64,000 nucleotides of DNA, from contig NW_003314343.1 in the NCBI RefSeq assembly GCF_000143415.4, positions 124,813 to 188,812 on the forward strand. The letters run 5' to 3'. Position numbers and translations under genes: made by a program. This document shows positions 13,301 through 64,000 of this stretch, in pieces (within the stretch, counting starts at the first letter, position 1; every line of letters begins with the position of its first letter). This stretch comes from Selaginella moellendorffii. Its lineage: Eukaryota > Plantae > Lycopodiophyta. The notes beneath the pieces are model-generated. The model was not told the DNA's origin. It worked only from the letters and a program-made list of their open reading frames with translations, and did no database searches.

Positions 13301-13387
13301 GATTTAGCTTTTTGCATTGTCTAAATCTACCATTTCCTTCCAGCTTTTTGTCATTTATCTTCTTTTGCTCTTTCTTCGTTCGTCTTC

Positions 13388-14320
13388 ATGGCAGATCAGC
13401 AATCTCCTCCTTTGACTCTGGAGCAGCAGTTGGTACAATTGCTTGATGCTATGTGCTTGCAATTGAACAACCAAACTCAATTGATGGCGGCGTTCATGGC
13501 ACGTGGTACAACTCTTCCTACTCTTGGTGCCAATCCTCATGTTCAGCCGGAGTTTTTTCACGAAAATCTTGGAGATGATGTGTACTATTGGTTCGATCAC
13601 TTCACGGTGATTGCCACATATCATTCTTGGGATGATGCTCGACATTTGCATGAGTTTCCCACTTGTCTTCAAGGGACGGCATTGCAGTGGTACAATGGTT
13701 TGAGCGCAGCCACTCGTGGGGATTGGAGTGTTATCCCAGACGTCTTCAAACGTGCCTTCGGACATGCTAACGACTGTGATGATGCCTTCCAACAATTGCA
13801 TTGTCTTCGCCAAGGGCCATCTGAGTCAGTGATGCAATTTTGTGTTCATTTCCGAAGTCTTTTGCTTCGTGCGGAGCCAAATATGTCGGAGTAGATCAAG
13901 CTAGGAATGTTGTGGCCAGCACTTCGTCAAGATCTTGTCGGACTTGTGCATGCACTTACTCCCGCCACCCTTGACGATGCTCTTCGCTTGGCACAACATT
14001 ATGAGATGTCGCCTCTTCCACTTCTCGCTACACATCCTTCAGCTCCACTTCCTGTGGGTGATGGTCCTGTTCCAATGGAGGTTGATGCTGCTGCTGCTCG
14101 AGTCCAAGGCCAAGGGAGAGGACGTGGTCGTGGCCGTGATGTTCGCTGTTGGGCATGTGATGAAGTTGGTCATACTTATCAGCATTGTCGGCGTTTTCCG
14201 GATTGGCGACCTCCATTTCCTGGGTGGAGACCTTGGCATCAGCAACGTCCCGTTGGTGCTGTTGCAGTAGAAGGTTTTGACACTGAGATGCATCCGGGAA
14301 ATGAGGAGTCACAAGAGTAA
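13388..14320 (+). pseudogene. gag (capsid and CCHC zinc knuckle), one internal stop
   Basis: LRQGPSESV, PVPMEVD and CWACDEVGHTYQHC motifs. TAG at 13892. Confidence 0.85.
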
Positions 14321-17300: not shown

Positions 17301-18009
17301 TCATGTTTTGACGTCTCAATTGGGGATTCGCCACACTTTCACAAGTGCTTATCATCCATAATCAGACAGTTTGGTGGAACGGCTCGTTCGGACATTCAAG
17401 GGGATGATTGTGAAATATGTGAACTTTCAGCATTCGGATTGGGATGGTTATTTGCCGTCTCTTCGGTATGCATATGTCACTGGGGTGCAGAGTTCTGTTG
17501 ATGCTTCACCATATAAACTCTTATATGGTCATGATCCAATATTACTAACGGAGCTGGGTTTACCTTCACGATTGCCAGGAGCTGCGGATGCTATGTCATG
17601 GATCAGTATTTGACGAGCATTATTCCACTTGTCCGAGCAGAGTCTGCCGAACACTTAGGCCGCATACAAGTGGGACAACAACGGTGGTACAACTCCCATC
17701 ATCGTCTACCTACGGAGTACAAAGTGGATGATTTGGTGTTAGTCCGTTTTCCCCATCTTACGGTACGTGGTTTATCTGGGGCTCCTTGCACAATGAAAAA
17801 GACCGTATCGGGTGTTGCGGCAAGTTGGACCACAAGTTTATGAGGTTCGGCATGATGTCCAGCAGGCCGATCCTCCAGAGATTCTACATGTGCAGTGGTT
17901 GAAACACTTCATACAAAGGGATCAGGAGCAATTAATACCATCTACAGATCTGCCAATGCCTCCTCCTGACGTTCCTCCAGATCCCGGCCTGTCTACAAGA
18001 GAACCCTGA
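14320..18009 (+). pseudogene. pol (PR, RT, RNase H, IN), disrupted
   Basis: DLILGMDWL, FCIDYRPLN, MPFGLNNAP, FIDDVLI, HDSPVLGGHMG and SDNGPAF motifs. Contains stops and a TRIM fragment. Confidence 0.88.
15834..16065 (-). mobile_element. Truncated TRIM (3' LTR 15834-15995, PPT and ~70 bp internal), same family as 246-850
   Basis: Reverse complement of about 620-850. Removing it restores pol WSPD|CEWVF. Confidence 0.9.
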
Positions 18010-20445
18010 TGGTCTTCCATTATTCCGAGAGGGGATGATGTGAGGGCCAAGTGTACGGCTACGATGCCGCATACTAATATTAGCATAGTGGGATTTTGGT
18101 AGTCGTCGGATTGGTTTCAATTCGGACCACTCGCTCCTGTATATAAGCTAGGGTTTTTGGGCTAATTGATATGCACATTTCTGTATTCCCTTTCGATATT
18201 CCATGCACTCACAACATCTTTTTCAATTATATATTCAACTGTTATTTCTGCTAATGTTAATTCTTCTAATTCTTTTGGTCTTTGCATGTATTTTTCTATT
18301 AGTCCTGGTATTGCTATTTTTGTATCTTCTTCATGCATTTTGGCTAACTCTTGTTTTGTTTTTAAACATCTTGTACATTGTTCTTGTGGTTTGGTATCAA
18401 TAAATTGAATTGTTCTAGATATATGATGAAATAGGATTGATAATATTAAAAAAATGCTTGTTGAATTTGCATTTCTCTATCACATATGAAGTTATTTCCT
18501 AATAATCGAACTCTATTGAAAGCATTTGTTCCTTCTTCTTGGCATTTTTTAAATACAGTTGCTAAAGTTTTTGTTATCTCTGTTTCTATACATGCAATAT
18601 ATGATAAACAATAGGATGTTGCTGCATATGGATCAAGTATCATATTAGTGATAATTTTTCATTAAATGTGTCTGTATTTATATCTTTTGGATGTCATTTA
18701 TAAATTTTTTTGGGTTTGTTAATGTTGATTTTATTGCATTCTTATATTGTTCATATGTTAATCCTGTTTTTACTAAATATTCTTCAAAATTTGAATTTTC
18801 TATTTCTTTTTTTTTCTCTTCTAGAATAGTTTTTATTTTGTTATACATTATTGTGTAGGCTTCTTTTTCATGTTTTATAATTTTTTTAATTGGTTCTAGG
18901 ATTTCAGTTTCTGGCATTGGTGGAATTAGATAATTAAATCTACATTTTATATTTTTACATTTTTTACAAGTTTTTCTATGTTTGTAAATTTATACATCTT
19001 TAATACTTTCTTGTAATTTCTTTGAATCAGTACATATTTTTATTAGAATATTCTTTTATTTAATCTAATGTTTGTGGTGGATTGTTGAGCCATATTAATA
19101 CATGCTTATGTGGCATTCCTTGTTGTCGCAAATACATAATTATAATTTTTTTTCTAATATTAGATAATCAGACATTAATAGTTTTCTAAATGCAGTTGTT
19201 TTATGTGTGTAATATCATAATACTGTTATTGGATCAGCTCTTAGCATTTTATATATTTTTTCTTTTTCATTTATATTTTCTTTATTTTGCAATATATGTG
19301 AATTCAAAAGCTCCAAAGCATTTATTAATGGTTTTCAATGTCTTTCTGAACAACTTAATGTTAAAAATAATTTTGGTGGTCCTAATTGTCTTATCATAGC
19401 AAATGCATCTGTTTTTAATCCTTCTAGATTATCTGGTGATGTTCTTAAATTCTTTAAATCTCTAAAACCAATATTTGATTTTAAAATTTTATCCATATTG
19501 CCATTTTGAAGCACATCCTTTGATGTTATTTTCCTTCCTTCATATGTAAATTTTCTCAATCTAAATCCAGCATTTTGATTCACAAATTTAATTTCTGTTT
19601 TTACAGTTGGTGTAAATATATGTTCTATAAGGCCATTAGATATAACAAACAAATTTACTTATCAAGAAATAATACAATGGAAATTAATGAATGAGGATAG
19701 AAGATTTGCAAGACATGGCTTCCCTACAAATATTTTTGGGTATCCCATTTCTTCAACATCTTGATCTATAAATAATCCCAATGGATGTTATAAGAAGCTA
19801 TTGTAGAAACTTTAACAGTCCACAATAAAGTTTGGATATCTATAAGCAGAAATACACCTGTTGATAATTGGGTTAATAAATGTTAGACCAATCCCAATTT
19901 AGATTGATAGGCAATAAAATTTTGTGGAGTAAAAATCTCTTAAGGTGGACCATACCTAAGCAAAACAGATACACTATGAAAAATAACATTTGTTACTTGA
20001 GAAATTTCTAGGACTTTCATATAAGAAATATCTTAGACATTTGGCCTTTAGAGGAAAGCCATCCCCATTTCAAAATTGATTGGGAAGCTTCCTTCTAAGC
20101 CTTCAACCAAGTAACCAATCTTGGAGACTCATGTTCAGGCAAAGTTTGTTGGCAATCCGGCTTAGGCACAACATTACTAGACCGTGAGAGGAGGATCTAC
20201 GTTAGCTTTTCGTTGAAGGGCCGAAGCAAGTAGTTAAGAGTGGCACGCTGGTTCAAGGGATTCTCAGGTTGTGGAGTGAGTTTCCAGTCAGTAGGGAAAT
20301 GCCGAGGCGAATAGAGGACTGGCTAAACCAGCCCCTATTCTTCAATGACCTCTTCAAATTGGACGACAGGATGCTAGGCAGGGAAGACCAGTACACAATC
20401 TGAAGAAAGCTGCATGGCAAAGGCTTCCAAACTCTTAAGCAACTG

Positions 20446-22167
20446 TGTAAGCAACTAAATTTTCCATTCTACTTTAGTCATTTAACCACACCTCCGACCA
20501 CTTGGAGGAGTCTCACTCACAACCTCCATAAGTCCCATTCTGGACTGGGGCTGGCTAGCCCTGAGAACGACATCCATGCCACTCAACCTTTGCACTTGGT
20601 CCAAGTGCTCCACGTGTCCGATCCCATGACCAACACTCAAAGGTCTCACCGACATAACAGTCTGTTACGCTAAGGCCATGCCCAATCAACTTTGCCTCAC
20701 TGGAGATCCAATACCACTTGCATCACAGTCTTGTCTCTCCACGACTGGGCCAACTATCCATGAGTGGTCATCCCAGATCCACTCCTTAGCATTCTTAGGA
20801 TGCCCACCGACAAGGGGAACAGCCTTCCCTAATATCCCTCTTTCAATCCCCACCAAGTCCTGTCCTACCCATGGCCGTATTCACCAACACTGCCACTGGG
20901 TCAAGGCCCATAGGCCCGACCACTAAGTTATAATGTCCTCTGGGACTTCCTTACCATGTGACTATATCCTTAGTCACTACACCAGAGGTCTGCTCCTCTT
21001 CTTTTCCACAGTCTGGGACTTTGGGACAACATTTCGGAACATCGTAGCCCTACGTGGGCCTCATGGGTACTCTCCCCGCTTTCTGCCTTTGGGTGCTCTA
21101 GCCATGGGCTTAGAGCAAAGTTCTATTGAGCCACGCCATGTATCCAAGTAGGTAGTGCCACCCACACTTGGATTGGGAGCATCGACCATTCGATCTCCCG
21201 GGGGAACTAAAGCCGGCTCTTGAACACTTCACCAAGTTACCCCGCTTGTCTGTCCGTATTCACTCTAGTCTTGGACTTCCCAGTGGTCATCCCATCACCC
21301 AACAGTTGGGTATGGCCTTCTAGGGCCAAACTGACATTTTCTGGCCAAATTGGCTCCACTGGGCTCCAACCCCCACACTCTCCCTACTATACTTTTGGAA
21401 CCCCCTGCAGCCCCCCCCCCCCCCCCCCCCCCGGGGGACCCTCCACCCCCCCCCCCCCCCCCCCCCCCGGGGGACAATCACTTTAGCCTTTCACCCAACT
21501 GCCTGTATTAGTATTCGGATTTGGACTCGGACTCGGTCTCGGTCTCGAATTCGGACTCGGACTCGGTCTCAATCTCGGTCTTGGTCTCGGTCTCAGTCCC
21601 GGTCTGGGTTCCATCTCGGACTCCATCTTGGGTCGATCTCGGACTCCATCTCGGACTCCATTTCGGGTCTATCTCGGACTCCATCTTGGAATCCATCTTG
21701 GGTCCATCTCGGACTCCATCTCGGGTCCATCTCAGACTCCAACTTGCGTCCATCTCGGACTCCATCTCTCGTCCATCTCGGACTCCATCTCGGACTCTAT
21801 CTCGGGTCCATCTCGGACTCCACCTTGGACTCCATCTCGGGTCCATCTCGGGTCCATCTTGGACTCCACCTCGGGTCCATCTCAAACTCCATCTCGGGTC
21901 CATCTCGGACTCCACCTCGGACTCCATCTCGGGTCCATCTCAACTCCATCTCGAACTCCATCTCAGGTCCCTTTTCTAGAGACTCACTTATTGCTCACTT
22001 CGTGTTTGTTCCTTGAGCCCTTCATTGGGAGTTCCACTCCTGCTCTCGACCTTTCAAGTTGGAGCTTTTAGTCCAAACGTGTTACGCTCGTTTGGCTTTC
22101 GTTTCGGCCACTACCACGTGGTACCCTTTCGGCTCCACTTTGGGGCCTAGGGGTTTTGTGTCTCACA
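20446..22167 (-). mobile_element. Solo LTR (1722 bp), TSD AACTG
   Basis: TG...CA termini. AACTG at 20441-20445 and 22168-22172. Homologous to 49799-51520. Internal poly-C and a 12-bp tandem array. Confidence 0.92.
21520..21970. repeat. 6/12-bp tandem array (GACTCCATCTCG-like) within the LTR
   Basis: Visible tandem units. Similar arrays at 50790-51290, 55835-56105 and 62220-62490. Confidence 0.9.
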
Positions 22168-31204: not shown

Positions 31205-33060
31205 TCACGGAGTAGGAGCTGAAGTTTCCATGGCAGTGGCGTCCCTTTTGGAGGATGATCTGTTGAGCAAGTACTGTATCTTACACATTGTCACCATCTG
31301 TGCCGGATCGTTTTGAGTCCGTGACATCTCCTGGAGCTTGATCTTCTCGAAGAGATACCGCCGCTCCGCCTCGGCTTCGTTGAGCCGGAGCTTGAGATAC
31401 CTGCTCGCGTACTCCTCCTCCACTTTCTCCGACTTGGCCAGAGCAATCCGCTGGAGATCATCCGCGTCGCGCCTTGCCTCGTCTGCTCGCTGCTGGAACA
31501 TCTCCGCCTCCGCCTGCTTCAGCCGGATGATCGTCTCCAGCTCTTCAATCTGCTGCCTCTTGCGCTGCCTCTCGATCTGGAGCTCTGTAAGTTCCCTCCT
31601 CTTGTCCTCCACCTCCCTGTCGCACGACTCGAGAGACAGCCGAGCTCGCTTCACGTCCACGACCTTCTCAGCAGCCACGCTCTCCATCTTTGAAACGGCC
31701 TCTTTCACCACTTCCGCAATACGTGAGCAAGCCTCCTGCGGCTCCACGACTTTTTTATCCTCGCTCGAATCATCCGCTTCCTCCACCTCCGTTTCTAGGG
31801 GCAGAATGAAAAAAATTGAGCAAAATAGAACAAAACCGTACCTTGGAAAAGCCGGTGTATTTCCTTGAGAACGACGCTCACATCGGTCCCACTTCGAAGC
31901 CTCTCGAGCGACTCGTGAGCCTTCTCATGGAGTTTTTTACCATTCTGGTCCTCGCTGCCATGGAAAATCCGCCGCAAGCTGTCCAGCTCCCGCACGAGCT
32001 CGTTGATATCCCAGTCGGAGGAACACGCTCGAAAAACATCCCTGGCCCAGCCCAAGAGCTCCGACGTGCCACCGCAAGCCCGGCACCTGAAAATCATCTC
32101 GGGAGCAGCAGCAGCTCCGCCACCTTTCTTCTTCTTGGAGCTGGTTCCCGTTGTGATCTGCCGAGCTCGCATCGCACAGTCGGTGTGAGTCCAGTGCGAG
32201 CAAGAGTCGCATCCCACCCAGCGGCAGGTGTTGACGTCGAAATCAAACTTCCCGCAGAGGAGGCACATACACGAGCTGCAAAAGCCCGTCTTGGCGCTGC
32301 AAACTTCGCAGCTACAGTCGTCCACGGGGATCTGAACGTGACATGCCATGTTGCGGCACCTGGTGTGGAAGAAAACTTCGACGAGAGCCGACTGGGTGAC
32401 GCATATATCCGGGTGGAGGAACGCCTGGATCCCAGTCTTGATCGCCACCAGCAGCTCTAGCTGTGTCCGGTGGGATCGCATGAGTGAAGCGGGAGACAAA
32501 TCTCCTCGCGCCTGGACGAGCTTCTGGAGGAGCACGAATTCCTCCCTTTGCCTCGGCCCACCCATGCCGGTCAGAACCTCGCGGAGCTCCGCCTTGAGCT
32601 CTTCCAGGTACTCGTCGGGCTGTGCGTGGAACCGGCTGGCCAGGGCCTCGATGGGAGCTTGCGCTATGTCGCGGAGGTGGATCCTGTCCATGTTTACCAC
32701 CTGGTGGACGACCGTGGAGTGATCGTGATCGTGTTCGTGTTGATCTTCCTCCTTCAGGAGCTTGTCCCTCTCTCTCTCGCCATCGCTCTTGGCCACCGTC
32801 GCCGCCTCCGCCGCCACCAGCACCGGCAATCTTCTTGCCTCTTCCCCTGTTCTTTCCGTCGGCCAGGTCTCGCGAGAGCTGGCGCTCTCCGACGGCGATT
32901 CCCGGCGGCGATCTGGCGATGGGCACGCATCCGACGATGCGAGGGAGAGAGACGTACCGCGAGATTGTGGCGGAGGAGGGGGAGGCGGCGCCGCTGCGCC
33001 TGGCGGCTTGCGATCCAGGGACAGACCCTGGCCCTCGCTGTAAGACCAGCTGCGCTTCAT
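31205..33060 (-). CDS. OBE: OBERON-like PHD-finger and coiled-coil protein; intron 31795-31841
   Basis: RCRNMAC...CSCEVC...FCSSCMC...WVGCDSCSHWTHTDC PHD finger. C-terminal ELETIIRLKQAEAEMFQ...EEEYASRYLKLRL. Confidence 0.92.
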
Positions 33061-33775
33061 GACGATCTTGGACTAGGTGTGGACGAAATCCGCGAAATCC
33101 AGCCCCAGCGCCTAGGAATCCGACCTCATTGCAAGCAAAATGTGGCAAGATAGTGCCGGGAATGCCCCTGATAGCCTCGATCCACGAACCCTAGAAGAAC
33201 GCTGGGGAGCCCTCTCCCATCGGTTAGTTTACTAGAGCCAAGCTTCGAGAACGCCACCGGGTTTCTCTCCATATCTACCAGAATCTTCCCGCATATTCCG
33301 TTCAACATCTGACCTGGTCAGCGTGCCGGGAGATTGTGACCGGCTGGTGGCACGAAAGTGGCGGTGACCAGCGCACGCGCCACCCAGTGTAGCCGGTGGC
33401 TAGTGCGGTGGTCAGCCGGTCAGCCGGTCGGGCGACCTGGTTGGTGGACGCGAGACATATGCTCCAATCCGATTTAGTCTCCGCAGTACAAGTCAAAGTC
33501 AAACTGTGTTTCCTTTTCGCATTTACTAATGCCAGACAATAGCGTGCCAATACCGTTTGATAATGGACGGCTCGGATCACATGCTTTGCGTGACGCAGAT
33601 AAGTATCTCTTACCTTTAAGCTAAACAAAAGTGGTATCTCTAATAAGAATGGAATATCCACCTTCGATCCGGCGCGTATCACAAGATTGACCATTCATAG
33701 TCAAAGCAGCGTGAATTTAGTACTCAAATACTCGCCTCCTCCATTGAAGAGCTCGTAAGTTCTTCACAGACGATC

Positions 33776-34852
33776 ATGGCGTCCTCCTCGATTTTCCGTA
33801 TTGCAGCGTTCCTCCTTCTGATCGTCCTCTCCAGTTCTTGTGCTCGAGCGCAAGATGGATCATGCTCGGAGTCCAGGCCATGCCCCTCCGGGATGTGCTG
33901 CAGCCGGTTTGGATTCTGTGGCACCACCGATGCCTACTGCGGTGCCGATTGCCAATTCCAGTGCCCAGGATCATCAAATCCTCCTTCGGTTCCAAGCCCA
34001 GCAGCACCCAGCCAAAACACGGGCGTGATCGCCACTTACTGGGGACAGGATGGCGGAGAAGGAAGCTTGCTCGATGCTTGCAACTCGGGGAACTACCGGA
34101 TCATCATGGTCTCGTTCCTCTCCCAGTTTGGAAACGGCCAGACTCCGGTGCTCAATCTCGCCGGACATTGCGATCCAGCGGGTGGGACTTGCACCGGATT
34201 AAGCTCCGAGATCAGCCAGTGCCAGCAGCTGGGGATCCGAGTGCTGCTCTCCATTGGTGGCAGCACTGGAAGCTACGGCCTCTCATCGAGCAGCGATGCC
34301 CAGTCCGTGGCGAGCTACATCTGGAATACCTTCCTCGGCGGGAGCTCCAGCTCTCGGCCCCTCGGCAGTGCCGTACTCGACGGCGTCGACTTTGACATTG
34401 AGAGAGGTGCCGTTCCACAGCTCTACGTTGATCTGGCGAGAGCTCTCCGAGGATTCGATGGATCTATGATCCTGGCTGCAGCTCCACAGTGTCCAATCCC
34501 AGACGCCAACCTCGGATCCACAATCCAAGTCTCGGGCCTCTTCAACTACATCTTCGTCCAGTTCTACAACAATCCTTCGTGCCAGTTTGATGGCAGTAGT
34601 GCATCAAACATCCTCTCTTCTTGGAACTCGTGGGTGTCCGACTCGGTCACGCCATCCTCGGCCAGGGTTTTCATGGGATTGCCGGCATCGTCCTCGGCTG
34701 CTCAATCTGGAGGATTCATGCCAAGCTCTACTTTGATCTCCCAAGTTCTTCCTACAATCAGATCTTCTCCGAAATATGGCGGCGTCATGCTCTATGCTGT
34801 GAGTTTTGACCGCCAGACCTCCTACAGTAGCTCCATTCGCTCCAGCGTCTAG
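33776..34852 (+). CDS. Secreted chitinase: signal peptide, hevein (CBM18) domain, Pro-rich linker, GH18 class III catalytic domain
   Basis: [65 protein letters not shown] and KYGGVML motifs. Intronless 358 aa. Confidence 0.95.
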
Positions 34853-49602: not shown

Positions 49603-52600
49603 TGAAACGAACAGGAGAGCGAACCCTAGGCCAACCTCCCAACCTTAAAGGGCCTTAAATTCCACAGGCTATAAAATATTTTTGAAATATTCCCATGGTT
49701 TGGGTCATTTTCCCCTCCCTTATGACTCAGCCACATACAACAGCCTCGAGAAGTTAATTGAGCCTCACATGAAGGGAGTCCAAGGCAATACAGCTATGTG
49801 TAAGTGATTAATTTTTCCATTTTACTTTAGTCACTTAACCACACCTCCGACCACTTGGGGGAGTCTCATTCACAACTTCCACAAGTCCCAGTTAGGAATT
49901 GGGGCTTGCTAGCCCCGAGAATGGCATCCATGCCACTCAACTTTTGCACTTGGTCTAAGTGCTCCACGTGTCCAATCCCATGATCGACACCCCAAGGTAC
50001 CACCGACATATCGGCTCATTACGCTGAGGCCATACCTATTCACCTTGGTCACACCAGTGGTCCAACACCACCTACATTGCAATCCCGTCTCTCATAGACT
50101 AGGCCATCCATCCATGAGTGATCATCCCAGATCCACTCCTTAGCATCCTTAGGATGCTCGCAGACTTAGGGAATAACCTTCCCCAATATCTCTTTTCCGG
50201 TCCCCACCAAGTCCCTCTCTGTCAATGGCTGTGTTCACCAACACTGCCACTGGATCAAGGCCCGCAGGCTAAGTCCAACTGTCCTCTAGGACTTCCTTAC
50301 TGGGTGACCGTGTCCTTTGTCACCACACCAGAGGGCTACTCCTCTTCCTTTCCACAGTCTGGGACTTTGGGATAACGTTTCGGAACACCGTGGCCTTACG
50401 CAAGCCTCATGGGTACTTTCCCCGCCTTTTGCCTTTAGGTGCTCTAGCCATGGGCTTAGAGCAAGGTTCCATTGAGCCACGACAGGTATCCAAGTAGGTA
50501 GTGCCACCCACACTTGGACTAGGAGCATCGGCCAATCGATCTCCCGAGGGAACTAGAGCCGGCTCTTGAACACTTCACTAAGCTACCCCGCTTGTCAGTC
50601 CGTGTTCACTCTAGTCTTGGACTTCCCAGTGAGCAGCTCATCACCCAACACTGGGTCCGGTCTTCCTGGGCCAAACTGGCCTTTCCTGGCCAAACTGGCT
50701 CCACTGCAGTCCTCCCCCTTACTATACTTTTGGAGCTCACCAAACCCCCCAGGGTCTGGGAGACAAACGCTTTGGGCTTTCACCCTCTCAAACTCGAACT
50801 CGGACTTGGACTTGGACTCGAACTCAGACTTGGACTCGGACTCGGACTTGGACTCGGATTCGGGCTCGGGCTCGGTCTTGGCCTCGGCCTCGGTCTCGGT
50901 CTCGGTCCCGGTCTCGGTCTCGGTCTCGGCCCCGGTCTCGGTCTTGGTCTCGGTCTCGGTCTCGACTTCGGACTCCATCTCGGGTCCATCTCGGACTCCA
51001 TCTCGGACTCCATCTCGGGTCCATCTCGGACTCCATCTCGGACTCCATTTCGGGTCTATCTTGGGTCCACCTTGGACTCCATCACGGACTCCACCTCGGA
51101 CTCCATCTCGGACTCCATCTCGGGTCCATCTCGGACTCCATCTCGAGTCCTTCTCGGACTCCACTTCGGACTCCACTTCAGACTCCAACTCGGGTCCATC
51201 TCGGACTCCACTTCGGACTCCAACTCGGGTCCATCTCGGACTCCACTTCGGACTCCACTTCGGACCCCAACTCGGGTCCATCTCGGACACTTCCACGTAT
51301 CATGTGTTGGTCCTTTTGTGTCCCTTTTTGGAGCCTCACTTATGGCTCGCTTCATGCTCGTTCCTCGAGCACTTCTTTGAGAGTTCCACTCCCACTCTCG
51401 ACCTTTTCAAGTTGGAACTTTTAGTCCAAACGTGTTACGCTCATTTGGCTTTTGCTTTTGCCACTACCACGTGGCACCCTTTCGGCTCCACTTTGGGGCC
51501 TAGGGATTTTGTGTCTCACACTATGGAGAAAAGATGTGCAAATGGCAACACCAACGTCGCAACAAATGGCCATGAAAGAAAGAAAGCAATACGGCTTTCT
51601 CACATGACAATATAGTCATGAAAACAAGAGAATGAGAATAAAACAAATGGCTCAAATCATATAGCAATACGGGTATAGAACTCAATTCTCCCCTTCCTTA
51701 GGAATGTTATCTAAGTCATAACCAAAACTTAGAAACACTCTCTTTACGTCATCCTCAGTTTCCCATGTAGCTTCGTCCATGGAATAACCATTCCATTGAA
51801 CTAACAACTCCCTAGTTGTCTTCCAACGTGTTTTCACCAATCTTTGAGCAAGAATATTAGTCGAATCAACATTCTCTACATCAATCTCTAGGACCTGGAT
51901 GATGGATTGATCCACAACATCACCAGAGTGCAAACACACTTTAAGCTTGCTTACATGGAACGTTGGATAAATCTTTAAACTAACTGGCAAGTCCAAAGTG
52001 TATGCAAGATCCCCCACATGTTGTAAAATTGTCCAATGCCCACAATAACATGGAGACAACTTAGCATTGCCACCTCCTTTTGGAGACCGTTGTGCATCTG
52101 ACAGCTTAAGAAAAACCTTGTCACCAACTTTGTACTCTTGATGACGACGATGCTTATTAGTTAATCTTTTGTCTCGCCCTTGAACTTGCCTTATGGTCAA
52201 CTTTGCTAACTCAAGCTTGTCTTGCATATCTTCCAAGAAATCACAAGCATGAAGTACCCGAACCAAAGCCAAATTCAAACTCATAGGAGACCTAGGCTCA
52301 TAGCTATACATCGCCATAAAAGGAGCTAATAGCCGATTGATGAGTGTTATTGTGAGCAAATTGAAGCAAGGCAAGTACTTCTCCCATACTCCCTATCGAA
52401 TCAAGTTTTCCACAAAAGATCGTAGCATATCTTCTAATAGCTGATTCATGTGCTCTGTTTGCCCATTAAATTGTGGATGCTCACCACTACTCATGCTTAG
52501 TTTAGTCTCTAGCTTCTCAAAGACCATTTGCCAAAACTTGGACGTGAACTTGGGATCCCGATCACTCACAATGTCACCCGGCAAACCATAGAGACTGAAT

Positions 52601-54797
52601 AACCGGTCTACAAATAACTGAGCAAGTTTAGAAGCTTTTATCGTTGTCTTCGTAAGGAAGAAATGAGCCATCTTCGTCAAACGATCCACAACAACCCAAA
52701 TAGAATCATTTCCTCGAAAGGTTTTGGGCAAACCAATGATAAAATCCATTGAGATGTTATCCCACTTATTCTCAAGTACACGTAAAAGATGATAGATGCC
52801 AGCAAGCTTATGATGATCAACTTTGACTGCCTAGCAGATCAAACAACCACGTACGTACTTCTCAACATCTGACTTCATCCCAGGCCAAAAGAAATGCCTC
52901 TTCACCAACATATACGTTCTCAATACCCCTGGATGCCCAGCACATGGCACATCATGACACTCAACCAAAATCCGTTTGATGAGTTTGTCAACACAAGGAA
53001 CCACTACACATCCCTTCTTCACCAGGATTCCATCTCATATGTCAAATGATGCAAACTTGTCACCCTTCAAATCTGTAGAGGAGTCCCTTAACAAAACCTT
53101 CACACGAATATCAATGATAAAGGAGTCGAAGTCAGCAAACTCCTTAAGCTCATCCAAGAGATCGCTGGATAGCTTCATGTACGAGATAAAATTTACCATC
53201 CTGGATAATGTATCAGCCACCTTATTGTCACTTCCATGCTTGTACTGGATCTTAACAGACATTTCTTGCAAGAACTCTTGCCAATGAGCAAGGCAGCCTT
53301 GAAGATCCACATTTTGAGAGACTAATGATCTGAATCTACATAGAAGTCCGATCCATATAGATAATGTTGCCATTCTCGAGTAGGTCAATTCCGTTGTGTG
53401 GCATCAAACTTGTGGCTTATGAATGTGAGAGAATGCCTAACTTGAAGCAATACGGCCCCAAAAGCACTATCACTCACATCATTATTTATAATTTCCACCA
53501 CAGTCACTTTATCATTCATTGACCCCTTCAAAACAATCCTTGCTCTGATGTCCAACTGTATGGCAATGAAAACAATTGCCCTCCACCTTGTCCTTCTCTC
53601 GCTGGTCCAAACGAAGTTTCTTAACTTTATTGCCATCATGCTTCAAGCCACAACGGAATAACGACTGTTTCTTCCCCAAATAGGAAGAATTAGCAAGCTG
53701 GTCATCACGTTGACTACTCTGTAGACTATCTCGTTGACTAGAGTTGACCAAATTGACTGATGGTTTGGGCAAAAAGATCTGAGCCTTAGTGATAGCATCA
53801 ATCAATGTTGCTGGAAAATCTTTCTTGACCTTCTGCTGCACATCCACTGAGCTCAATCCTTTGATGAAACATTGCACATTTAGCAGCTCATTATAGGTCT
53901 CCGTGAGACTAAGGAAAAGATTACGGAACTTGCGGGCATACGCATCCAAAGATAAAGTCCCTTGCCGGATCTTTAACAATTGGTTCACGAGATCAACCTC
54001 TTCAAACTTCTTCACAAACGAAGTGTGGAAAACCTTTGTCCTTGACCTTCTACTGCACATCCACTAAGCTCAATCCTTTGATGAAACATTGCACCTTTAA
54101 CAACTCATTATAGATGCCAAGAAAATATCATGGGACTTGCGGGCATACACATTCAAAGACAAAGTCCCCTGTTGGATCTCTAACAGCTGGTTCACAAGAT
54201 CAACCTCTTTAAACTTCTTAACAAACGAAGCGCAGAAAACCTTTGTCAAATCAGTCCAAGAAGTCAGCTTCAGATTAGCTTTGATGTAATTCTTCCATCA
54301 CGAAGAAGCATGGCCCGTAAGCTTTATCACAAAAAAGTCTATCTTCACCTTATCCTCACAAGAATTGTGAGACCAACAACTTTCCCACAATTCCAACCAA
54401 GAATCAACCTCTTGACTATCACAAACATCTGGTGATGATTTCCATTCCATGATACCATAATCCTTGACATACTTGACGTACCAATGGTAATCACGGACAT
54501 GAGATTGATTCAACCCTTGAGGGTCCATGCGAAGCAAGAAATCCTTAATGAGATTGACAGAATCCTTAACCCCCTTTATGTCGCTCTGAACCTCAGGAAT
54601 TTGGCATCCTTGCTGCACAAAGACATCATCAAGAGTTTCTTCCACATCGTCATGGCTATCATCACTAACGCCATACTCTTCATCAGGATCAATGTCTTGC
54701 TCACCCGCCATCCCCAAAAGAACATGCTACTCCGATACCAATGAAATGAACAAGAGAGCGAACCCTAGGCCAACCTCCCAACCCTTAAGGCGTTACA
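49603..54797 (-). mobile_element. Non-autonomous chromovirus-like gypsy element (gag, RH remnant, IN, chromodomain; no PR/RT seen)
   Basis: PBS TGGTATCGGAG (reverse complement ~54730-54740). LTR end repeated at 49603-49650 and 54742-54790. PPT 51685-51697. CFHCHTVGH, MDFIIGLP, SDRDPKF and LVQWNGYSMDEATWE motifs. Confidence 0.85.
49799..51520 (-). mobile_element. Solo LTR (1722 bp), TSD CTATG, inserted in the 3' LTR of the element above
   Basis: TG...CA termini. CTATG at 49794-49798 and 51521-51525. Homologous to 20446-22167. Confidence 0.92.
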
Positions 54798-56956
54798 AGC
54801 TCTATTTCGTTAAAGTGGGAATTGTCATTATCCCACTTGTAAAATAAGGTTTCCAAACCTTTATATAGTATATAAATATAACAAAATTCAACTGCATTGA
54901 GGCACATGCCATTTTATTTTAAACAAGGAAATGTCTACTCAATCACTTCTCCTCCCCCTGCCACTGCTTCACCTCTCTCTTCTCCTTGTCATCGTCGTCC
55001 AATTTCTTTCCATCCTTTTAATATTGGCTCAGTTGCTCCGAGTCTAGGTGGAGCCCAAGTCCCCATTCAATCTTTACTTTCCCCTTATTAATAAAACAAC
55101 TTCGTAGACTTCCAATAACATGCTGTAACACTTCTAGTATAATGCAAATCCTCTCAAAGAATTGTCTTTTAATATTAATACAATGGCATGGAACCCCATG
55201 CCATAATAAGTTACATTTTTAAATAAATACATGCCATCTCAGACTGTTATTTTTTGCCTCCAACGCCTATACAATAATCTTGGAATTTCATCACTCTCCA
55301 CACTATCAGGATTTAAACCCAATAGTAATGCCATCTCTTCTCCAATACGTCCACGCTCATGTTCAGTGGTCGAAGAACCCATTCGGTTGAGCAGATTATG
55401 GAGATGCGGATAGTGCTTGGCTAGACAATATACATGCCATAAATGATGACTGGTGTCTGTCCAATCAAATGGCTTCTGATATACCGTTCCATCTGCCATT
55501 TGGTTGATTTCTGCAGCCACCTCCTGGACTGATTGGTTCTCTATCACCATCGCTTCAAGCCGTTTTGCAAGGTCCCCCAGAACATACGGTTTCTTCTCCC
55601 TAGTTTCCATACTGCAAGAGATGGGGTGCACTGCATATGTGTGCGTGTTCGCTGCAGTTTTAATCGGCGAGTCATCGATGATGAGGATTTCACTTGACCT
55701 AGCAGTCCGGTTCATCACTACAGCCTCTGGCTTGACGAAGATGGGCTTGTGTAAGGAACCAACTCGCCGAGGTGTCGTAGGCTAAAGGAACCCCGAAAGC
55801 ATGACCAAAATGACAAAGAGTTCATCGGATGGGACCAAGTCGAAGATCGAGTCCAAGACCGACTCTAGGACCGAGTTCGAGATAGAGTCCGGAATCGAGT
55901 CCGAGACCAACTCGGGGACCGAGTTCGAGTCCGAGTTCGAGACCAAGTTCGAGACGGAGTCCGAGATCCGAAATCGGGTCCGAGACCGAGTCCGAGGTCG
56001 AGTCCGAGGTCGGGTCCGAGATCGGGTCCGAGATCGAGTCCGCGATCGAGTCCGAACCCGAATCCGAAGTCGGATCCGAAATCGGGTCCGAGATCGAGCC
56101 AGAGACTAAGTCCAAATACTAATACGGGTCAAGGGGTGAAAGCCCAAAGCGTGTGTCTCCCAGGGGGGGGGGGCTGCGGGGGGTTCCAAAAGTATAGTAG
56201 GGATAGTGAGGTCCAGGAACCAGTTTTGAAGGGACTCTCCAGTTGGGCTTCCAAACCGACTTGAGGTTGGGACTGGGACTAAGGGGCCTTGGGTGGGAGT
56301 GAGCATGGACTTGGCTGGTGCCGGAGGGGCCATCCAAGGAAGTGCTCAAGAGCAGCTCCCACTCCCGAAAGGGAAACCGATTGCGGTGCTCCCGGCTCAT
56401 GTGGAGTGGTGCCCCACTTGAGTACCATGCGGCTCATTGGTCCTTGCCCTTCCTAGGGGCTTGGGCCTTCCTTCGGGACGGAAGTGGGGGGCGAGAGGTA
56501 CCCATACCGGGCCGTTAGGCCACGGTGTTTCACCCCGGCGTCCCGAAGCAAGTGTTGCACTCAAGACTTGGGATTTAGAGGGTCCCATGATCAAGTCTTG
56601 TGGTACCAAGGGATGTTAGGAACCTGGAAGCTTGGTGTGCTTGGCTGCTTGTGCTTGCGGGGAGTGTAGCCGAACCTTAAGTCCAGTCTAACTCGGGGAG
56701 GGGGATTGGGAGTGATTTGGGAATCCGTGGAAGGATGGCTAACACTCCGTTGCTCGTGCAGTGAGTAGTTGAAACCAAGTAGGAGTTGGTACCATAGGCG
56801 AGAACCTTGGCAAGGGAACTTAGCAAAAGCCAAGGCAGTGTTGGACGGATAGACGAGGTAAGCTGGCAAATTGGAAAGGAAAAATTTGTGGCTTACAATT
56901 TGGTATCGGAGCCTTTATCTCAGTTCTAGCGAAGGATAGAGGCGGATTGCTGGGAG

Positions 56957-59900
56957 ATGGCAAGGGCAGGGCGTAAGCGAACCCAGGCGGAGACGGAACC
57001 TCCGCCGGAGCTGGAGCCTCCGGTTGAACAAGAGGCTATGGATGAGGAATCCTTGCATGAGGAGGACTCTAGTGAGGAAACTTCCAAACAGGAGTCCGGT
57101 GGCGAGGTTCGGTCGTCCAAGGCTCGATTGGACGTGCTAGAAGGACAGTTGGCACAGACCAATGCCCTGCTGGAGACTCTCGTACGCAAGTTAAAGCGTG
57201 ACGAGAAGCGGAAGAAAAAGCGAAAGACTGCGGATGCTGGCAGCGCAGAAGGTGCGGACCCTTCGGCAGGGACTGAGGCAAAACCAGACAAGGTCGAACA
57301 GACCGAAGTGGAATCAGTCCCTCAGGCAGTTCCCAAGTACAAACCAAAGCCCCCACCGGTGTTCAAGGGAGTGAACGACTATAAGGTTGTGGAGGATTGG
57401 TTTTACGATATGGAGGACTACTTCCGAGCGTTGCGGTTACCGAGCTCGGAGAAGGTCCCATGTGCAAAACCATACTTGGCAGATAATGCCAAGTCTTGGT
57501 GGAGAACAATGGAGGCCAACAAAGGACCGGTGGCCACCTGGGACATGATGAAGGCGAGGATCCGCGCGACATACGTTCCTCTGAATGCCACTCTGCATCT
57601 GAGAGATGAGCTGAGTAGGCTGAAGCAGACTGGAACCATCCAGGAATATGTGAATGGGTTCATGGCAAAGAGGATACTTGTCACGGACATGGGGGATATG
57701 GATGCGTTCCATGCCTTTATATCAGGTTTGCAAACCTGGGCTCGCGGTGAGGTGATGCGCTGGAACCCGACCAACTACAAGGAAGCGTTGGATGCGGCCA
57801 TCAAGGTGCATTTCAACGATAACCTGTGAAAGGGGAACACGACGGGGTCGGGATCCACGTTTCACAAAGGGGCCAAACCGAGGGGAACATATAGCAAGGG
57901 GAAATTCAAGAAGAGTTTCTCTAAGAATGAGTCCTCGGGGTTCCGGAAAGGCAAATCCGGTGGCCAGCGAGCGAGTACGTGGGGAAGTCAAGCGAAAAGA
58001 GACAAACCCACGGATAAGAAGGTCAAGTCGTATAGCAGCGTGGGCAACAACGTATGCTACAACTGCGGCGAAGCGGGACACTTCTCAAGGGAATGTCCCT
58101 ACCCGAAGAAGGCCAGAGCCAATATGGCCATCAAGTCGGGTGAAGTCCAAACTGAGGTATGTGATCCAGTCCCTAACTCAAAGTTACTCATTACACGAGC
58201 AACTTTGGTAGAGAGTCGTTCGCGACATCTACTAGCCCTCCGAGGGAAGCTCGGAGGTAGCTTTGTTAAGATCCTTATTGACACGGGTGCTTCGGATAAT
58301 TTTGTGGCTGCAGACATAGTCCGGCAAGCCGGACTAACGGTGCAGCGGCTAGGCGAACCAAGGACTATAGAGTTTGTTCAAGGTAGCCAAAGCACCGATG
58401 AGGTACTTCGACAAGCGAGAGTCGAAGTGGGGACATGGAAAGTGGACATGGATTTCACCGTCTTGGACATGGCGGGATTTGACGTGATCTTCGGAATGGA
58501 TTGGTTTAATCGGTTCGTGGTGGCCCTGCATGGACAAGGTAGGAACCTTGTGGTATTGGCGAATGCCCAAGGAAGAAGATCTAGGGTGGAGGCCCAGGAT
58601 CTAAAGGTAGGGCAAAGCAAGGCCAAAGAGTCATGTTTAAACCTGGTGTCCACGAGAGGACAACTCACTAAAGGAACTAAGGCAGCCTTTTTGTGCTTAC
58701 TCTCGGTGAAGAGTGACAAAAAGACAAGAACAGAAGAAGTACCTTTAGTGATCCAGCAGGTGCTGGACCAATTCCAGGATACCATGCCAGAGGAGCTACC
58801 GGCGGGGTTGCCCCCCGCACGACCGATAGAACATAAGATTGAGCTGGTCGAGGGTGCTGAGGCGGTGGTTCGTCCACCCTATCGATTGAACGAAAAAGAA
58901 CTCAAGGAGCTCAAGAGCCAACTAGAGGAGTTGGTGGACAAAGGGTATGTTAGGTTGAGCAAGTCGCCGTATGGGGCGCCGGTGCTATTTGTGAAAAAGA
59001 AAGATGGATCTATGCGCATGTGCATAGACTACCGGTTGCTCAACAAGTATACCAAGAAGAACAAGTACCCTTTGCCAAGGATCGAGGACCTGTTCGATAG
59101 GTTGGGAAAGGCAAAATACTTCTCGAGGATTGACCTAAGGTCAGGATACTACCAGATCAGGGTAGCTGAGGAAGATGTCGAGAAGACAACCTGTCGAACG
59201 AGGTATGGGAGCTTTGAGTTTTTGGTGATGCCCTTTGGGCTGTGCAATGCGCCGGCAACGTTTTCGGCGTTGATGAACCACATCTTTGTACCCTATCTGG
59301 ATCGCTTCATGGTCGTCTATATTGACGACATCTTGATCTATAGCGAGACGCTAGAGGAGCATGCCGAACACTTGGCGAAGGTGTTTGAGAAACTAAGGGA
59401 ACACAAACTGTATGCTAAAGAGAGCAAATGTGACTTTGCTCAACAAGAGGTAAAGTTTCTCGGGCATGTGGTGGGCCAGGACGGGCTCAAGGTGGACCCG
59501 GAGAAGGTCCAAGCGATCCAGGAATGGGAACGACCATCGAATGTACATGAGTTGAGGGTGTTCCTGGGGCTATGCAACTACTATCGAAAGTTTATCAGAC
59601 ACTATTCGAGAGTAGCCCTGCCCTTAACGGACCAAACAGGAAAAGGGAAGATGGTATGGACAGCGGAATGCGAGGCGGCATTCGTCCACCTCAAAGGGAA
59701 GTTGAGGAAGGCTCCGGTGTTGGCATTACCAGACTTTGGTAAGGACTTTGAGGTAGACACAGATGCTTCGGACTTTGCGTTGGGCGCAGTTTTGAAGCAA
59801 GACAACCATCCAGTAGCGTTCTTCTCGAAGAAGCTGGACAAGGCTCAACGGAAGTGGCCTGCCCACGAGAAGGAATTGTTTGCGGTGGTCAAGGCGCTCA

Positions 59901-61729
59901 AGGAGTGGCGACACTACCTTGGGAGACACTTCAAGGTTTACACGGACAGTGTGGCAACGAAACACTTCTTGTCACAGCCCGACCTAAGGGGAAAACAAGG
60001 TCGGTGGGCCAATGCTTTGGCCGAGTTTGATTGCGAGATCCTGTACAAGCCTGGGAAGAGCAACATCGTGGCAGATGCGCTAAGTCGAAAAGCGAGCTTG
60101 AAGTTGGCGATATCTAGCGCGACAGCAACCTTTTGGGACGATGTGCGGACCGCATACGAGAGTGATGGTCTAGCACAAGAAGTGTTGCTGAGGAATCTGG
60201 AGGCGCGGGAAGCTCACCAGAGAGGTGAGCTGCCAACGGAAGAGAAAACGGGCTATGCGGAACGCAACGGACTCATATATTACAAGCAAACGAGGGTGTA
60301 TGTTCCAGAAGGGGAACTAAGGAAAGTAGCCTTGGAAGAGTGTCATGATGGACCTCTTGCGGGACACGGCGGAGTGCCCAAGACGATGGGCTTACTCAAA
60401 AGGAAGTATCACTGGCCGGATATGGCTAAGGACGTCCAAGACTATGTAAAGACATGTCCAACATGTCAGCAGGTCAAAGCCGTGACGAAGGCTAGTGGGG
60501 GCTTGTTGCAAAGCATCCCCATTCCAGATCGTCCGTGGAAATGTCTCACGATGGACTTCATCACGGGACTACCCCCAAGCGAGGGGTTCGATGCGATATT
60601 CGTGGTGGTGGACCGATTTTCAAAGATGGCACATTTCATACCCACCACAACGGATGTGGATGCGGAAGGTGTGGCGAAGCTGTTCTTCGAACAAGTGGTT
60701 CGAGTGCGGGGAAGGCCGGAAGAGATTATCTCAGATTGAGATAAGATCTTCACCAGTAGGTTCTGGAGGACACTCCTAGAACAGTATCGCACCAAGTTGA
60801 AATTCAGCACGGCCTATCACCCACAGACAGGTAATGGGTATTGAGTCAAGATTGATGGCACTAACACTTCTTGACAGACGGACAAACGGAAAGGGTGAAT
60901 AGGCAGCTGGAGGATTATTTGCGATGCTATGTCTCGGGAGACCAGACCGACTGGGTAAGTCATTTGGGACTTGCGGAAATGTGTTATAACAACTCACCAC
61001 ATTCGAGCATCGGGGTGAGTCCATGGGAAGTCATCAATGGGCGAGCTATTGAAGGTCCTGTGGAACTCGGCGTGGCCGAGTATCATGGAGAGTTACCCGC
61101 AGTGGAGGCATTCACGGCGGAAAGACTCAACATTTGGAATCTAGTGAGGGATTCCTTGGAACGAGCTCAACAAAGGCAAACCAAGTACGCGAACCTAAAG
61201 CGCCGGGATGTAGAGTTCCAAGCTGGGGAGAAGGTGTGGCTGAACACCAAGAACCTTAGGCTACCAAGTGGGATCAGCCGAAAGTTGACCCAAAGGTAAA
61301 AATGCATGTATTCCTGTAAATGAATTGATCTTGAGTTCCTTAAGCAGGTTCGCGGGGCCTTACGAGATTGAGGCACGAATCGGTAAAGTGGCTTACTGAC
61401 TCCGACTTCCTCGAGAGATGGGGAAGATGCACCCAGTGTTCCATGTGAACTTACTCAAGCCGTACTTTGAGGATCCGCTTCGCAAGGACCAAGTAAGACC
61501 TTTACCTGAGGTTATCCAAGGGGAAGAGGAATACGAAGTCGAGGCCATCCTCAATGCGCGCAAGAGCAAGCAACAAGGACGCGAGGTGAGAGAGTTCCAT
61601 GTGAAGTGGAAAGGATTTCCACACTGCGAAGCAACATGGGAACCGGAGGAGAACCTAGCGAACGCGCGAGATCTAGTGGAGGAATTTCTGCAAGGCAGAA
61701 CTCTATGTACTTATGCAAAGTTCAATTAA
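56957..61729 (+). CDS. gag-pol polyprotein (CA, zinc knuckle, PR, RT, RH, IN, GPY/F, chromodomain) with predicted introns 60831-60877 and 61296-61347 and three in-frame TGA lesions
   Basis: One frame from 56957 to 60830 with TGA at 57827 and 60737. [22 protein letters not shown] and HHCC motifs. Removing the insertions gives HPQT|DGQTE and KLTQR|FAGPY. Third TGA at ~61397. Chromodomain YEVEAIL...VKWKGF...TWEPEENL. Confidence 0.9.
60831..60877 (+). other. Predicted 47-nt spliceosomal intron in integrase
   Basis: AG|GTAATG...CACTAAC...GACAG|. Removal restores frame and the HPQTDGQTER motif. Confidence 0.85.
61296..61347 (+). other. Predicted 52-nt spliceosomal intron before the GPY/F module
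   Basis: AG|GTAAAA...AAGCAG|GT, AT-rich. Removal restores KLTQRFAGPY. Confidence 0.85.
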
Positions 61730-64000
61730 AAATATATCAATTTGCAAAGTTGAGCAAGTGGCATATGTTGGGACCCGAAGGCGCGCCGAAGGTGAGCTAA
61801 TTAGCATGGGTTAGCTAGGTCGACCAGGTGTAGGGAGCTACGCCCGACTCCCTGCGGGGATGTCGAAACCGTAGACGTATTCTACGGAGGTTGGGTTCGA
61901 GTCCCAACCCCCTAGTAAAGCAAGGCTGGGTTCAAGTCCCGACCCTATACTAGGACGTGGTGAGGGGAGGAGTATAGGGACACCTATATTCCGTTGTCAT
62001 GGGCTCTTGGCCGGGGAGGCTAACTTAGGCACACCGCTAAGTGGGGGGATGCCCCCGGAGACATGGTCAACAAGTCGTAGGATAAAATGAGACGTTCGAT
62101 GTGGGCATCGAACTTCTTCTATGGGTGGTGGAGTTGTAAGGAACCAACTCGCCGAGGTGTCGTAGGCTAAAGGAACCCCGAAAGCATAACCAAAATGACA
62201 AAGAGTTCATCGGATGGGACCAAGTCGAAGATCGAGTCCAAGACCGACTCTAGGACCGAGTTCGAGATAGAGTCCGGAATCGAGTCCGAGACCGACTCGG
62301 GGACCGAGTTCGAGTCCGAGTTCGAGACCGAGTTCGAGACGGAGTCCGAGATCCGAAATCGGGTCCGAGACCGAGTCCGAGGTCGAGTCCGAGGTCGGGT
62401 CCGAGATCGGGTCCGAGATCGAGTCCGCGATCGAGTCCGAACCCGAATCCGAAGTCGGATCCGAAATCGGGTCCGAGATCGAGCCAGAGACTAAGTCCAA
62501 ATACTAATACGGGTCAAGGGGTGAAAGCCCAAAGCGTGCGTCTCCCAGGGGGGGGGGGCTGCGGGGGGTTCCAAAAGTATAGTAGGGATAGTGAGGTCCA
62601 GGAACCAGTTTTGAAGGGACTCTCCAGTTGGGCTTCCAAACCGACTTGAGGTTGGGACTGGGACTAAGGGGCCTTGGGTGGGAGTGAGCATGGACTTGGC
62701 TGGTGCCGGAGGGGCCATCCAAGGAAGTGCTCAAGAGCAGCTCCCACTCCCGAAAGGGAAACCGATTGCGGTGCTCCCGGCTCATGTGGAGTGGTGCCCC
62801 ACTTGAGTACCATGCGGCTCATTGGTCCTCGCCCTTCCTAGGGGCTTGGGCCTTCCTTCGGGACGGAAGTGGGGGGCGAGAGGTACCCATACCGGGCCGT
62901 TAGGCCACGGTGTTTCGCCCCGGCGTCCCGAAGCAAGTGTTGCACTCAAGACTTGGGATTTAGAGGGTCCCATGATCAAGTCTTGTGGTACCAAGGGATG
63001 TTAGGAACCTGGAAGCTTGGTGTGCTTGGCTGCTTGTGCTTGCGGGGAGTGTAGCCGAACCTTAAATCCAGTCTAACCCGGGGAGGGGGATTGGGAGTGA
63101 TTTGGGAATCCGTGGAAGGATGGCTAACACTCCGTTGCTTGTGCAGTGAGTAGCTGAAACCAAGTAGGAGTTGGTACCATAGGCGAGAACCTTGGCAAGG
63201 GAACTTAGCAAAAGCTAAGGCAGTGTTGGACGGATAGACGAGGTAAGCTGGCAAATTGGAAAGGAAAAATTTGTGGCTTACAGCTTGCTACCCCTCACAT
63301 GGACCATAGTCAAGCAATCCTCCTGCATTAGGAGAAAGTCAAATGGTAATATTACTCGCGTCTGATCGTGCATCATCTGTAGCAACGTTAATGCATTGTG
63401 GCGCATCATGGATGTCCAAAATCCCAATTGCAAATTGAACCCGGCCCTCTGTTTTAAGTGTCGCATGGTCATTATTAGATCCCGCAGTTTCTCCCGTGTG
63501 ATTAATGTGAATCTGTCTCTTTTGACCAACTTGCGACCGCAGGCTTTGGAGGGTGCAGTGACATTCGAGGACGAGCCACGCTCATGGGAGAAAAGGACAC
63601 CGTTCAGATCAAAAACGATATAGTACCTTCGCCGTGACTCTGAAATGAAATGCGTCAACATAAAAAATGGTACAAGTCAATTTTACCATCTACAATATTA
63701 GCGAATGGTGCTCCCGATGGTCGTTGAGAGGGTTTTGGTCGAGGAAACGTGAAGGGCGGAAATACTCTCCTCTGCAATGTGGGGTCAATCGCATCCGGTG
63801 GCGTGTGGGCACATGCCATTTCAGCTGTAGACTCTGGTACAACTGGCTCAACAGTGGCATGGGGTGGTTCTGATGGCGTGTGATCACACGCCATTTCAGC
63901 TGGTGCCTCCATTGGCAAAGTGGACATGACCGAACAGGCAGCAGGGGCGGTGTAGGGAGGTTCCAACGGCGCGTAGTCAGACGATTGGGCACACGTTGGA

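Follow-up and report, generated by a model that had tools for sequence, protein, structure and literature searches.

Introns retained in the integrase of a Selaginella chromovirus, and a putative leader intron across its primer-binding site

Introduction

In textbooks, the loss of introns stands as the proof that LTR elements move by way of RNA. Several reverse-transcribing elements are described as spliced. In foamy viruses, the accounts in PMC5035957 and PMC7828637 place the major splice donor in R, within the LTR and upstream of the primer site, and have Pol made from a spliced RNA. The 35S RNA of CaMV is reported to yield isoforms spliced from donors in the leader, of which those lacking the primer site are not reverse transcribed and those retaining it are (PMC4498817). 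Among plant LTR retrotransposons, genomic copies of Ogre (Ty3/gypsy, Tat lineage) are described as retaining an intron that has to be spliced out of some transcripts if the complete polyprotein is to be made (PMC6317226). For Ty3/gypsy elements of Arabidopsis, the published surveys describe no conserved splicing (PMC5580714, PMC3735527), and the only plant exceptions named in a review of 2025 are Ogre and EVADE (PMC12786077). Penelope-like elements also retain introns, including one in the 5'-UTR that lies across the boundary between repeat and body, and the reason for their retention is given as unknown in the account we cite (PMC8557442). Further context is provided by PMC2864245, PMC6839031, PMC7730604, PMC5718144 and 10.1101/2020.02.20.956714. 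In the literature outside subscription journals, Repbase and the FASTA and table of elements of PMC6317226, our search found introns described neither for SM1-Galahad nor for a chromovirus integrase, nor across the primer site of any LTR retrotransposon.

Here, we describe such an arrangement in a window of 64,000 nucleotides from Selaginella moellendorffii (assembly GCF_000143415.4, contig NW_003314343.1, positions 124,813 to 188,812), to which all coordinates below refer. A preliminary description of this window had pointed out two short inserts in the integrase of a chromovirus; we follow up its claims with homologous proteins, public DNA and RNA-type sequencing runs and the published account of the family.

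Results

The element is a full-length Ty3/gypsy chromovirus of 7533 nt on the plus strand (55750-63282), on which all of its features are read. It is flanked by identical 5-nt target-site duplications, GCTTG, at 55745-55749 and 63283-63287. The 5' LTR (55750-56897, 1148 nt) has TG..CA ends, 12-nt tandem repeats and a poly-G tract of 11 at 56163, and it differs from the 3' LTR (62135-63282, 1148 nt) at 11 positions, all of them transitions. A 13-nt primer-binding site of tRNA-Met type, typed from PMC3350952 and from the remembered consensus, follows at 56901-56913, and a polypurine-tract region (62120-62134) adjoins the 3' LTR. The coding region consists of three exons. Exon 1 (56957-60830) encodes, according to Pfam, Gag with its CCHC motif, protease, RT, RNase H, the integrase zinc finger and both catalytic Asp residues; exon 2 (60878-61295) encodes the catalytic Glu and the C-terminal part of the integrase core; and exon 3 (61348-61729) encodes the GPY/F module and a group I chromodomain at about 61532-61690 (Pfam Chromo, E 8.8e-17, with an HP1-like match at E 5e-10). 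They are separated by intron 1 (60831-60877, 47 nt, phase 1) and intron 2 (61296-61347, 52 nt, phase 2). The Pfam order along the element is Gag, zinc knuckle, protease, RT, RNase H, integrase and chromodomain, with no long ORF downstream of the latter; this Gag-PR-RT-RH-IN order, the chromodomain at the end of the integrase, the LTRs and the 5-bp target duplication are those of a Ty3/gypsy chromovirus. The LTRs, the target duplication and the primer site together indicate that reverse transcription and integration brought this copy here, the inserts being already part of it. A gypsy-like integrase with introns is also known from the Ginger1 DNA transposon, an identity ruled out here by the presence of RT, RH, LTRs and a primer site. 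The insertion apparently interrupts an open frame on the minus strand (55242-55749 and 63283-63676), neither half of which has a Pfam match; a DLNGVL motif in this frame is, we presume, reminiscent of HAD-type phosphatases.

The copy itself is dead. Where the preliminary description took its frame to be otherwise open, three in-frame stops had been overlooked. The first, in gag (57827-57829), is likely private to this copy, as the published family ORF is open there (PMC3350952), and a read-through at this stop was rejected on the same ground. The second, in the integrase (60737-60739), and the third, in exon 3 (61397-61399), are private or minority variants, with about 95% and 99%, respectively, of the summed DNA depth in run X1 differing from them. 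RNA-type contigs leave a gap at 57687-57877 that includes the gag stop, so that a further joint is possible there. A hairpin is predicted at 57825-57872 (+), beginning at the gag stop (z -4.1).

The window also holds a decayed second copy of the family on the minus strand (851-4311), identified by sequence comparison at 80-83% identity, which carries both integrase inserts. Its insert 1 (1760-1714) is still 47 nt long and keeps its GT..AG ends; its insert 2 (1306-1266, 41 nt) has an 11-nt deletion and has lost its acceptor. A faster decay of introns than of exons in this old copy was considered and set aside, the mismatch counts (7/47 and 5/41 in the inserts, 155/1066 in exonic sequence) being uninformative. 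Nested at its 3' end is a TRIM-like short element (247-852, +); a distance of about 510 nt separates its two direct repeats, and position 342 has a primer site of tRNA-Met type. It had been stated that the other gypsy elements of the window lack the first insert, which is correct for two unrelated, decayed elements with short LTRs (about 12984-18213, +, and 49603-54790, -) and incorrect for the remnant of the same family at 851-4311. Other residents of the window are a PIF1-like helicase remnant, possibly Helitron-derived (11681-12172, -; E 1.7e-8), a host gene for a GH18 chitinase that includes a chitin-binding domain and is encoded in a single open frame (33776-34852, +), and a host OBERON-type PHD gene (31205-33072, -), whose intron (31841-31795, -) does measure 47 nt, as had been noted. 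Two host proteins had no counterpart in a look-up of exact matches.

On every feature that could be tested, the element fits SM1-Galahad, a Galadriel-related chromovirus of S. moellendorffii, the match being one of description and not of sequence. This family was published as about 7.5 kb long with TG..CA LTRs of 1076/1146 bp and a poly-G tract of 11-25 (Novikov et al. 2012, PMC3350952), beside 7533 nt, 1148 nt and 11 here, and with a 13-bp tRNA-Met primer site, as at 56901-56913. Its consensus is described as a single ORF of 3885 bp (1295 aa) ending in the core integrase, without a chromodomain (PMC3350952). Exactly this length, 3885 nt or 1295 codons, separates the gag ATG from the stop in intron 1 in our element (56957-60841), to which the present copy adds two earlier stops. 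The short downstream ORFs of the consensus, 316 and 309 bp long with CHD_I in the last (PMC3350952), have counterparts here of 318 and 309 nt, with the chromodomain. The same source reports that a consensus was built and no intact copy found among hundreds, from which it follows that the published SM1-Galahad consensus carries both breaks. These were treated there as separate ORFs, and the strings "intron" and "splic" occur 0 times in the main text of PMC3350952, while "Galahad" is absent from the text of its supplement; three introns and their splicing are what is new here. The sister family SM2-Galahad is described as having one open ORF of 1577 aa (PMC3350952), which suggests that the introns were gained in the SM1 line. 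In a quick RT-RH tree, built without named reference rows, the element sits on a long branch at an open fork (88) beside angiosperm chromoviruses, with a best identity of 63%.

The two integrase inserts are as first described in position, length and GT-AG ends. Intron 1 (CAG|GTAATG..TGACAG|) lies four codons ahead of the catalytic Glu of the D,D(35)E triad, and intron 2 (AAG|GTAAAA..AAGCAG|) directly before the GPY motif; each contains an in-frame stop, at 60842-60844 and 61297-61299. The former had been said to stop translation of the integrase: it does end the ORF of the family, and in the present copy it is not reached, as the stops at 57827-57829 and 60737-60739 come earlier. The inserts had also been called AT-rich, which they are only modestly, with a GC of 0.40 and 0.33 versus 0.51-0.52 in the flanks; T makes up 30-35% of them, below the visibly T-rich OBERON intron. 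GT..AG windows of 47 and 52 nt occur at 12/4726 and 23/4721 positions of the coding region. Candidate branch points, from sequence, are the CTAAC of intron 1, its A only 13 nt from the 3' end, and a TTGAT at 22 nt. The two introns fold no better than chance (z 0.73 and -0.17) and are unlike each other and unlike the rest of the element. A comparison with Rfam found 0 matches.

Precise removal of the inserts had been said to restore the integrase, and a comparison with 331 homologous integrase proteins, with X placed at the junctions, bears this out. No gap falls within 3 residues of the junction in 297 of the 301 homologues that span site 1 and in 254 of the 258 that span site 2; over a wider window, in the first set of homologues, the alignments are gap-free at site 1 in 62/62 and at site 2 in 47/57. 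Seven of the 331 alignments stop near site 1, none of them resembling read-through into an intron, and a search for proteins the size of exon 2 found none among 11 candidates. Close relatives were not found, the best identities being about 49%, 51% (among single-domain matches) and 56%. Likewise, 34 metagenome loci proved to be distant elements (29-56%), with no insert wherever they span the two sites.

As to their origin, intron 1 is bordered by a 5-nt direct repeat, and intron 2, which entered at AG|GT, by one of 4 nt; insertions often have such repeats. Introner-type introns use a target duplication as a splice site, have inverted ends and are related to copies elsewhere; of these features, we find the border repeats of 5 and 4 nt and, by eye, no inverted ends.

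The preliminary description had proposed a search of RNA for the junctions 60830/60878 and 61295/61348. Both are present in runs X15 and X17, and the first also in X23; X23 and X24 alone are recorded as RNA, X15, X17 and X18 being RNA by guess. The 47-nt GT..AG segment is skipped exactly in contigs of X15 and X17 and in one raw read of X23, which come from three studies (P3, P4 and P8), and the 52-nt segment exactly in contigs of X15 and X17, from two of these, in a comparison that covered 56898-62134. Both introns are skipped in one contig, X15 record 6, which is an assembly and not one molecule. Expression is very low: among 9.2 million records, 10 reads of X23 match, one of which skips intron 1, and one of X24, with no joint. 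A contig of X18 (P5) retains intron 1 and runs into intron 2, and it may derive from DNA. At 61260, a variant that accounts for 554 of 738,530 of the summed DNA depth in X1 is present both in those contigs of X15 and X17 that are spliced and in the X18 contig that retains intron 1, indicating that the two forms share an origin in one small expressed subgroup.

In genomic DNA, the inserts are retained. X1 provided 18,548 DNA contigs that match 60300-61750, and the summed depth over the two inserts (949k and 931k) shows no dip against adjacent bins (0.93-1.05M). Neither skip is among the best-supported 15 of 27 joints in X1, the lowest of which has a depth of 133; this compares with depths of 104-156 for single rare X1 contigs, and contigs drop rare variants. 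Record 18 of X4 (depth 51, where rare contigs have about 2) covers both inserts ungapped, and record 27 of X6 (depth 132) covers intron 2 ungapped. Beside these, X1 could contain a lone copy without the introns, or X4, X6 and X18 could have skips at low depth. The depth of 51 versus about 2 in X4 and the 18,548 contigs in X1 mark the family as clearly multi-copy, summed depth not being the same as copy number. With GT..AG ends, exact removal in RNA-type data and retention in DNA, introns 1 and 2 share these properties with U2 spliceosomal introns, and we hold with high confidence that they are real and functional.

Variation among copies follows the spliced reading frame. Variant places were taken from the 40 best-supported of 154 and of 372, excluding those under the stops of the copy and in intron 1. 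Downstream of intron 1, 18/25 of them lie at third positions of the spliced frame where 8.2 are expected (P 7e-5), made up of 13/19 in exon 2 (6.3 expected) and 5/6 in exon 3; the corresponding count for exon 1 is 29/36. Mismatches of the decayed copy show no such excess (40/105 at third positions, 36.8 expected). The enrichment indicates that the spliced protein is under purifying selection. Since the introns are common to the copies by descent, the variation is presumably younger than the introns, and thus the region past the intron-1 stop would have stayed in use as protein. Splicing in RNA-type data, retention in DNA and selection on the spliced frame together support what the preliminary description had inferred, namely that the family needs splicing to make its full, chromodomain-bearing integrase, and that its copies descend from unspliced RNA.

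A third, putative intron, which had been missed, lies in the leader. Intron 0 (56858-56923, 66 nt, GAG|GTAAGC..TCTCAG|) takes in the final 40 nt of U5 as well as the entire primer-binding site and ends 33 nt before the gag ATG. It comes from one contig of one run, X15 record 1 (1341 nt, depth 8.9), which aligns to 56922-57686 from its nucleotide 577 onward; of the 576 letters in its loose end, 30 were compared by eye, and 28 of these match 56826-56855. Intron 0 and introns 1-2 are found on different contigs, and we infer that the three are spliced together. The element contains four distinct AG|GTAA sites, three of which are the intron donors; the fourth (59450) is unskipped in X15 record 5. 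Upstream of intron 0, the LTR leader has six ATGs (56305-56735, +), and translation may require further leader splicing or shunting.

The donor of intron 0 also lies in a predicted U5 hairpin (56858-56896), in which it is paired with the terminal inverted repeat of the LTR, a candidate branch point. The hairpin scores z -3.9 on a 48-nt window chosen after the fold had been seen and -0.9 on 86 nt, and 10/250 nearby windows of 48 nt reach z<=-3. As proof of a switch it was rejected, the window being post hoc and related solo LTRs having weaker folds (z -0.8 and -2.3) without a GTAAG donor. These two solo LTRs, of a related family and about 1724 nt long (20444-22167 and 49797-51520, -), share the tandem-repeat block (about 70%) and the U5-terminal hairpin, and have GAG|GTGTGG in place of the intron-0 donor.

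Discussion

Why the introns have stayed in DNA is a matter on which the preliminary description offered no reason, having left aside why spliced RNA is not copied. We think it rather probable that spliced RNA loses its primer-binding site with the leader intron and that copying is thereby confined to unspliced RNA: the spliced RNA could not bind the tRNA primer, and as it could not prime reverse transcription, the introns would not be purged. Under this mechanism, the LTR promoter would give rise to two pools of RNA. The spliced pool would encode a single Gag-PR-RT-RH-IN-chromodomain protein, by arithmetic 1557 codons long, and, having lost the tRNA-Met primer site and the tip of U5, would be a dead end for copying. 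The unspliced pool would be the genome, retaining the primer site and all introns; if translated, it would yield a protein of 1295 residues with an integrase that lacks the catalytic Glu, and it would be the spliced pool that supplies the particle with full integrase. This would require that splicing be largely all-or-none, or that RNAs that retain intron 0 and have lost introns 1-2 be rarely packaged. With such a gate in place, short GT-AG insertions in the integrase would escape purging and could become fixed. Short introns of host-like type are normally spliced well, which counts against a sufficient unspliced pool. We put forward the fuller scheme more tentatively, as a possibility that we would not yet call probable: a 66-nt intron over the primer site that bars every spliced mRNA from being copied, a hairpin in U5 that sets the choice between genome and messenger by hiding the donor, and host-type introns gained and kept behind this gate, two of them now in the integrase.

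Several other explanations share part of these data. The introns may be real and needed, with spliced RNA barred from copying by another route, be it pools that differ in start site, capping or polyadenylation, as in BARE, a packaging signal within an intron or a translation that excludes packaging, and with intron 0 a minor by-product. BARE1 provides a precedent, in that its translated RNAs are reported to lack R and its packaged RNAs to be uncapped and unspliced (PMC3735527), and intron 0 has been seen in one contig only. However, the sole 5' end observed is spliced exactly over the primer site from a consensus donor, and the absence of any fold beyond chance in introns 1 and 2 is a weak point against a structured signal; we judge this route unlikely, if worth keeping in sight. 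Selection among copies would dispense with a gate altogether, if intron-less copies do arise and then fail or are removed through an overdose of integrase, silencing or the loss of U1 protection from early polyadenylation. Binding of U1 is reported to shield full-length EVD RNA from early termination (PMC5580714), and there is room for rare intron-less copies beyond the best 15 of 27 X1 joints. Such selection should, however, leave several independent intron-less copies, whereas no multi-copy skip is among those 15 joints and the published genome survey reported no intact copy (PMC3350952), so that we consider it improbable.

The two remaining explanations deny the introns a function. The inserts could be disabling lesions of a founder, in a non-autonomous family that borrows its integrase from SM2-Galahad or another family and whose splicing is cryptic noise, as the three in-frame stops of the present copy, the very low expression and the existence of an intact sister family might suggest. 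Yet the third-position enrichment is as strong after intron 1 as before it, splicing restores the register exactly at both sites, and the catalytic Glu and the chromodomain have been retained, which together leave this account very little weight. Finally, the skips might not reflect splicing at all, if a rare genomic copy without introns gave rise to them or if reverse transcriptase switched templates at the border repeats of 5 and 4 nt during library making; the repeats are there, and X15 and X17 are RNA by guess only. Against this stand three different GT..AG joins, one of which shares only AG, skips in three studies that include one run on record as RNA, and an expressed subgroup that is found with intron 1 retained as well, so that an artefact is scarcely credible.

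If the introns are kept because spliced RNA loses its primer site, the implications reach beyond this locus. A high-copy family that keeps introns inside its integrase would come with a simple and testable reason in its own sequence, the removal of the primer site by splicing, and messenger and genome would thus be kept apart by natural means, a matter that has long been in question for retrotransposons. With a sister family that has no introns, it would also be a dated case of intron gain, and it would explain why the published survey lacked intact copies of the family. It carries a warning, too: a pipeline that relies on ORFs will score families of this kind as dead, most of all where the introns of a genome are very short. 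The introns of a named family, SM1-Galahad, have been overlooked, and in our analysis the one over the primer site has the greatest value and the least replication.

Among known systems, the arrangement would work most like the gates of foamy virus and CaMV, and the element belongs to neither. As in foamy virus, enzymes would be made from spliced RNA and join a particle with unspliced RNA (PMC5035957, PMC7828637), and a donor upstream of the primer site is present here as well (donor at 56858, primer site at 56901). However, foamy virus is a retrovirus with env, in which one large intron removes gag and Gag is made from genomic RNA, whereas our element has a 66-nt leader intron that ends before gag and two micro-introns that split the integrase core; a separate Pol and an env of the foamy type are absent, the acceptor lying before the gag ATG and gag and pol forming one frame. 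CaMV, in contrast, is a pararetrovirus without integrase, in which splicing reduces ORF I and ORF II expression and rebuilds no active site. Penelope-like elements differ in having neither a tRNA primer site nor a DDE integrase. The Ty1/copia elements EVD and BARE1 resemble our element in that spliced (shGAG) and unspliced RNAs divide the work and the unspliced RNA is the genome (PMC5580714, PMC3735527), but there, the spliced RNA gives a shorter product, Gag, and the full polyprotein is encoded by the unspliced one, the reverse of what is proposed here. In Ogre, the intron lies between the PROT and RT ORFs, whereas in the element described here protease and RT are in one open frame, and the introns lie within the integrase and, on the reading we favor, across the primer-binding site.
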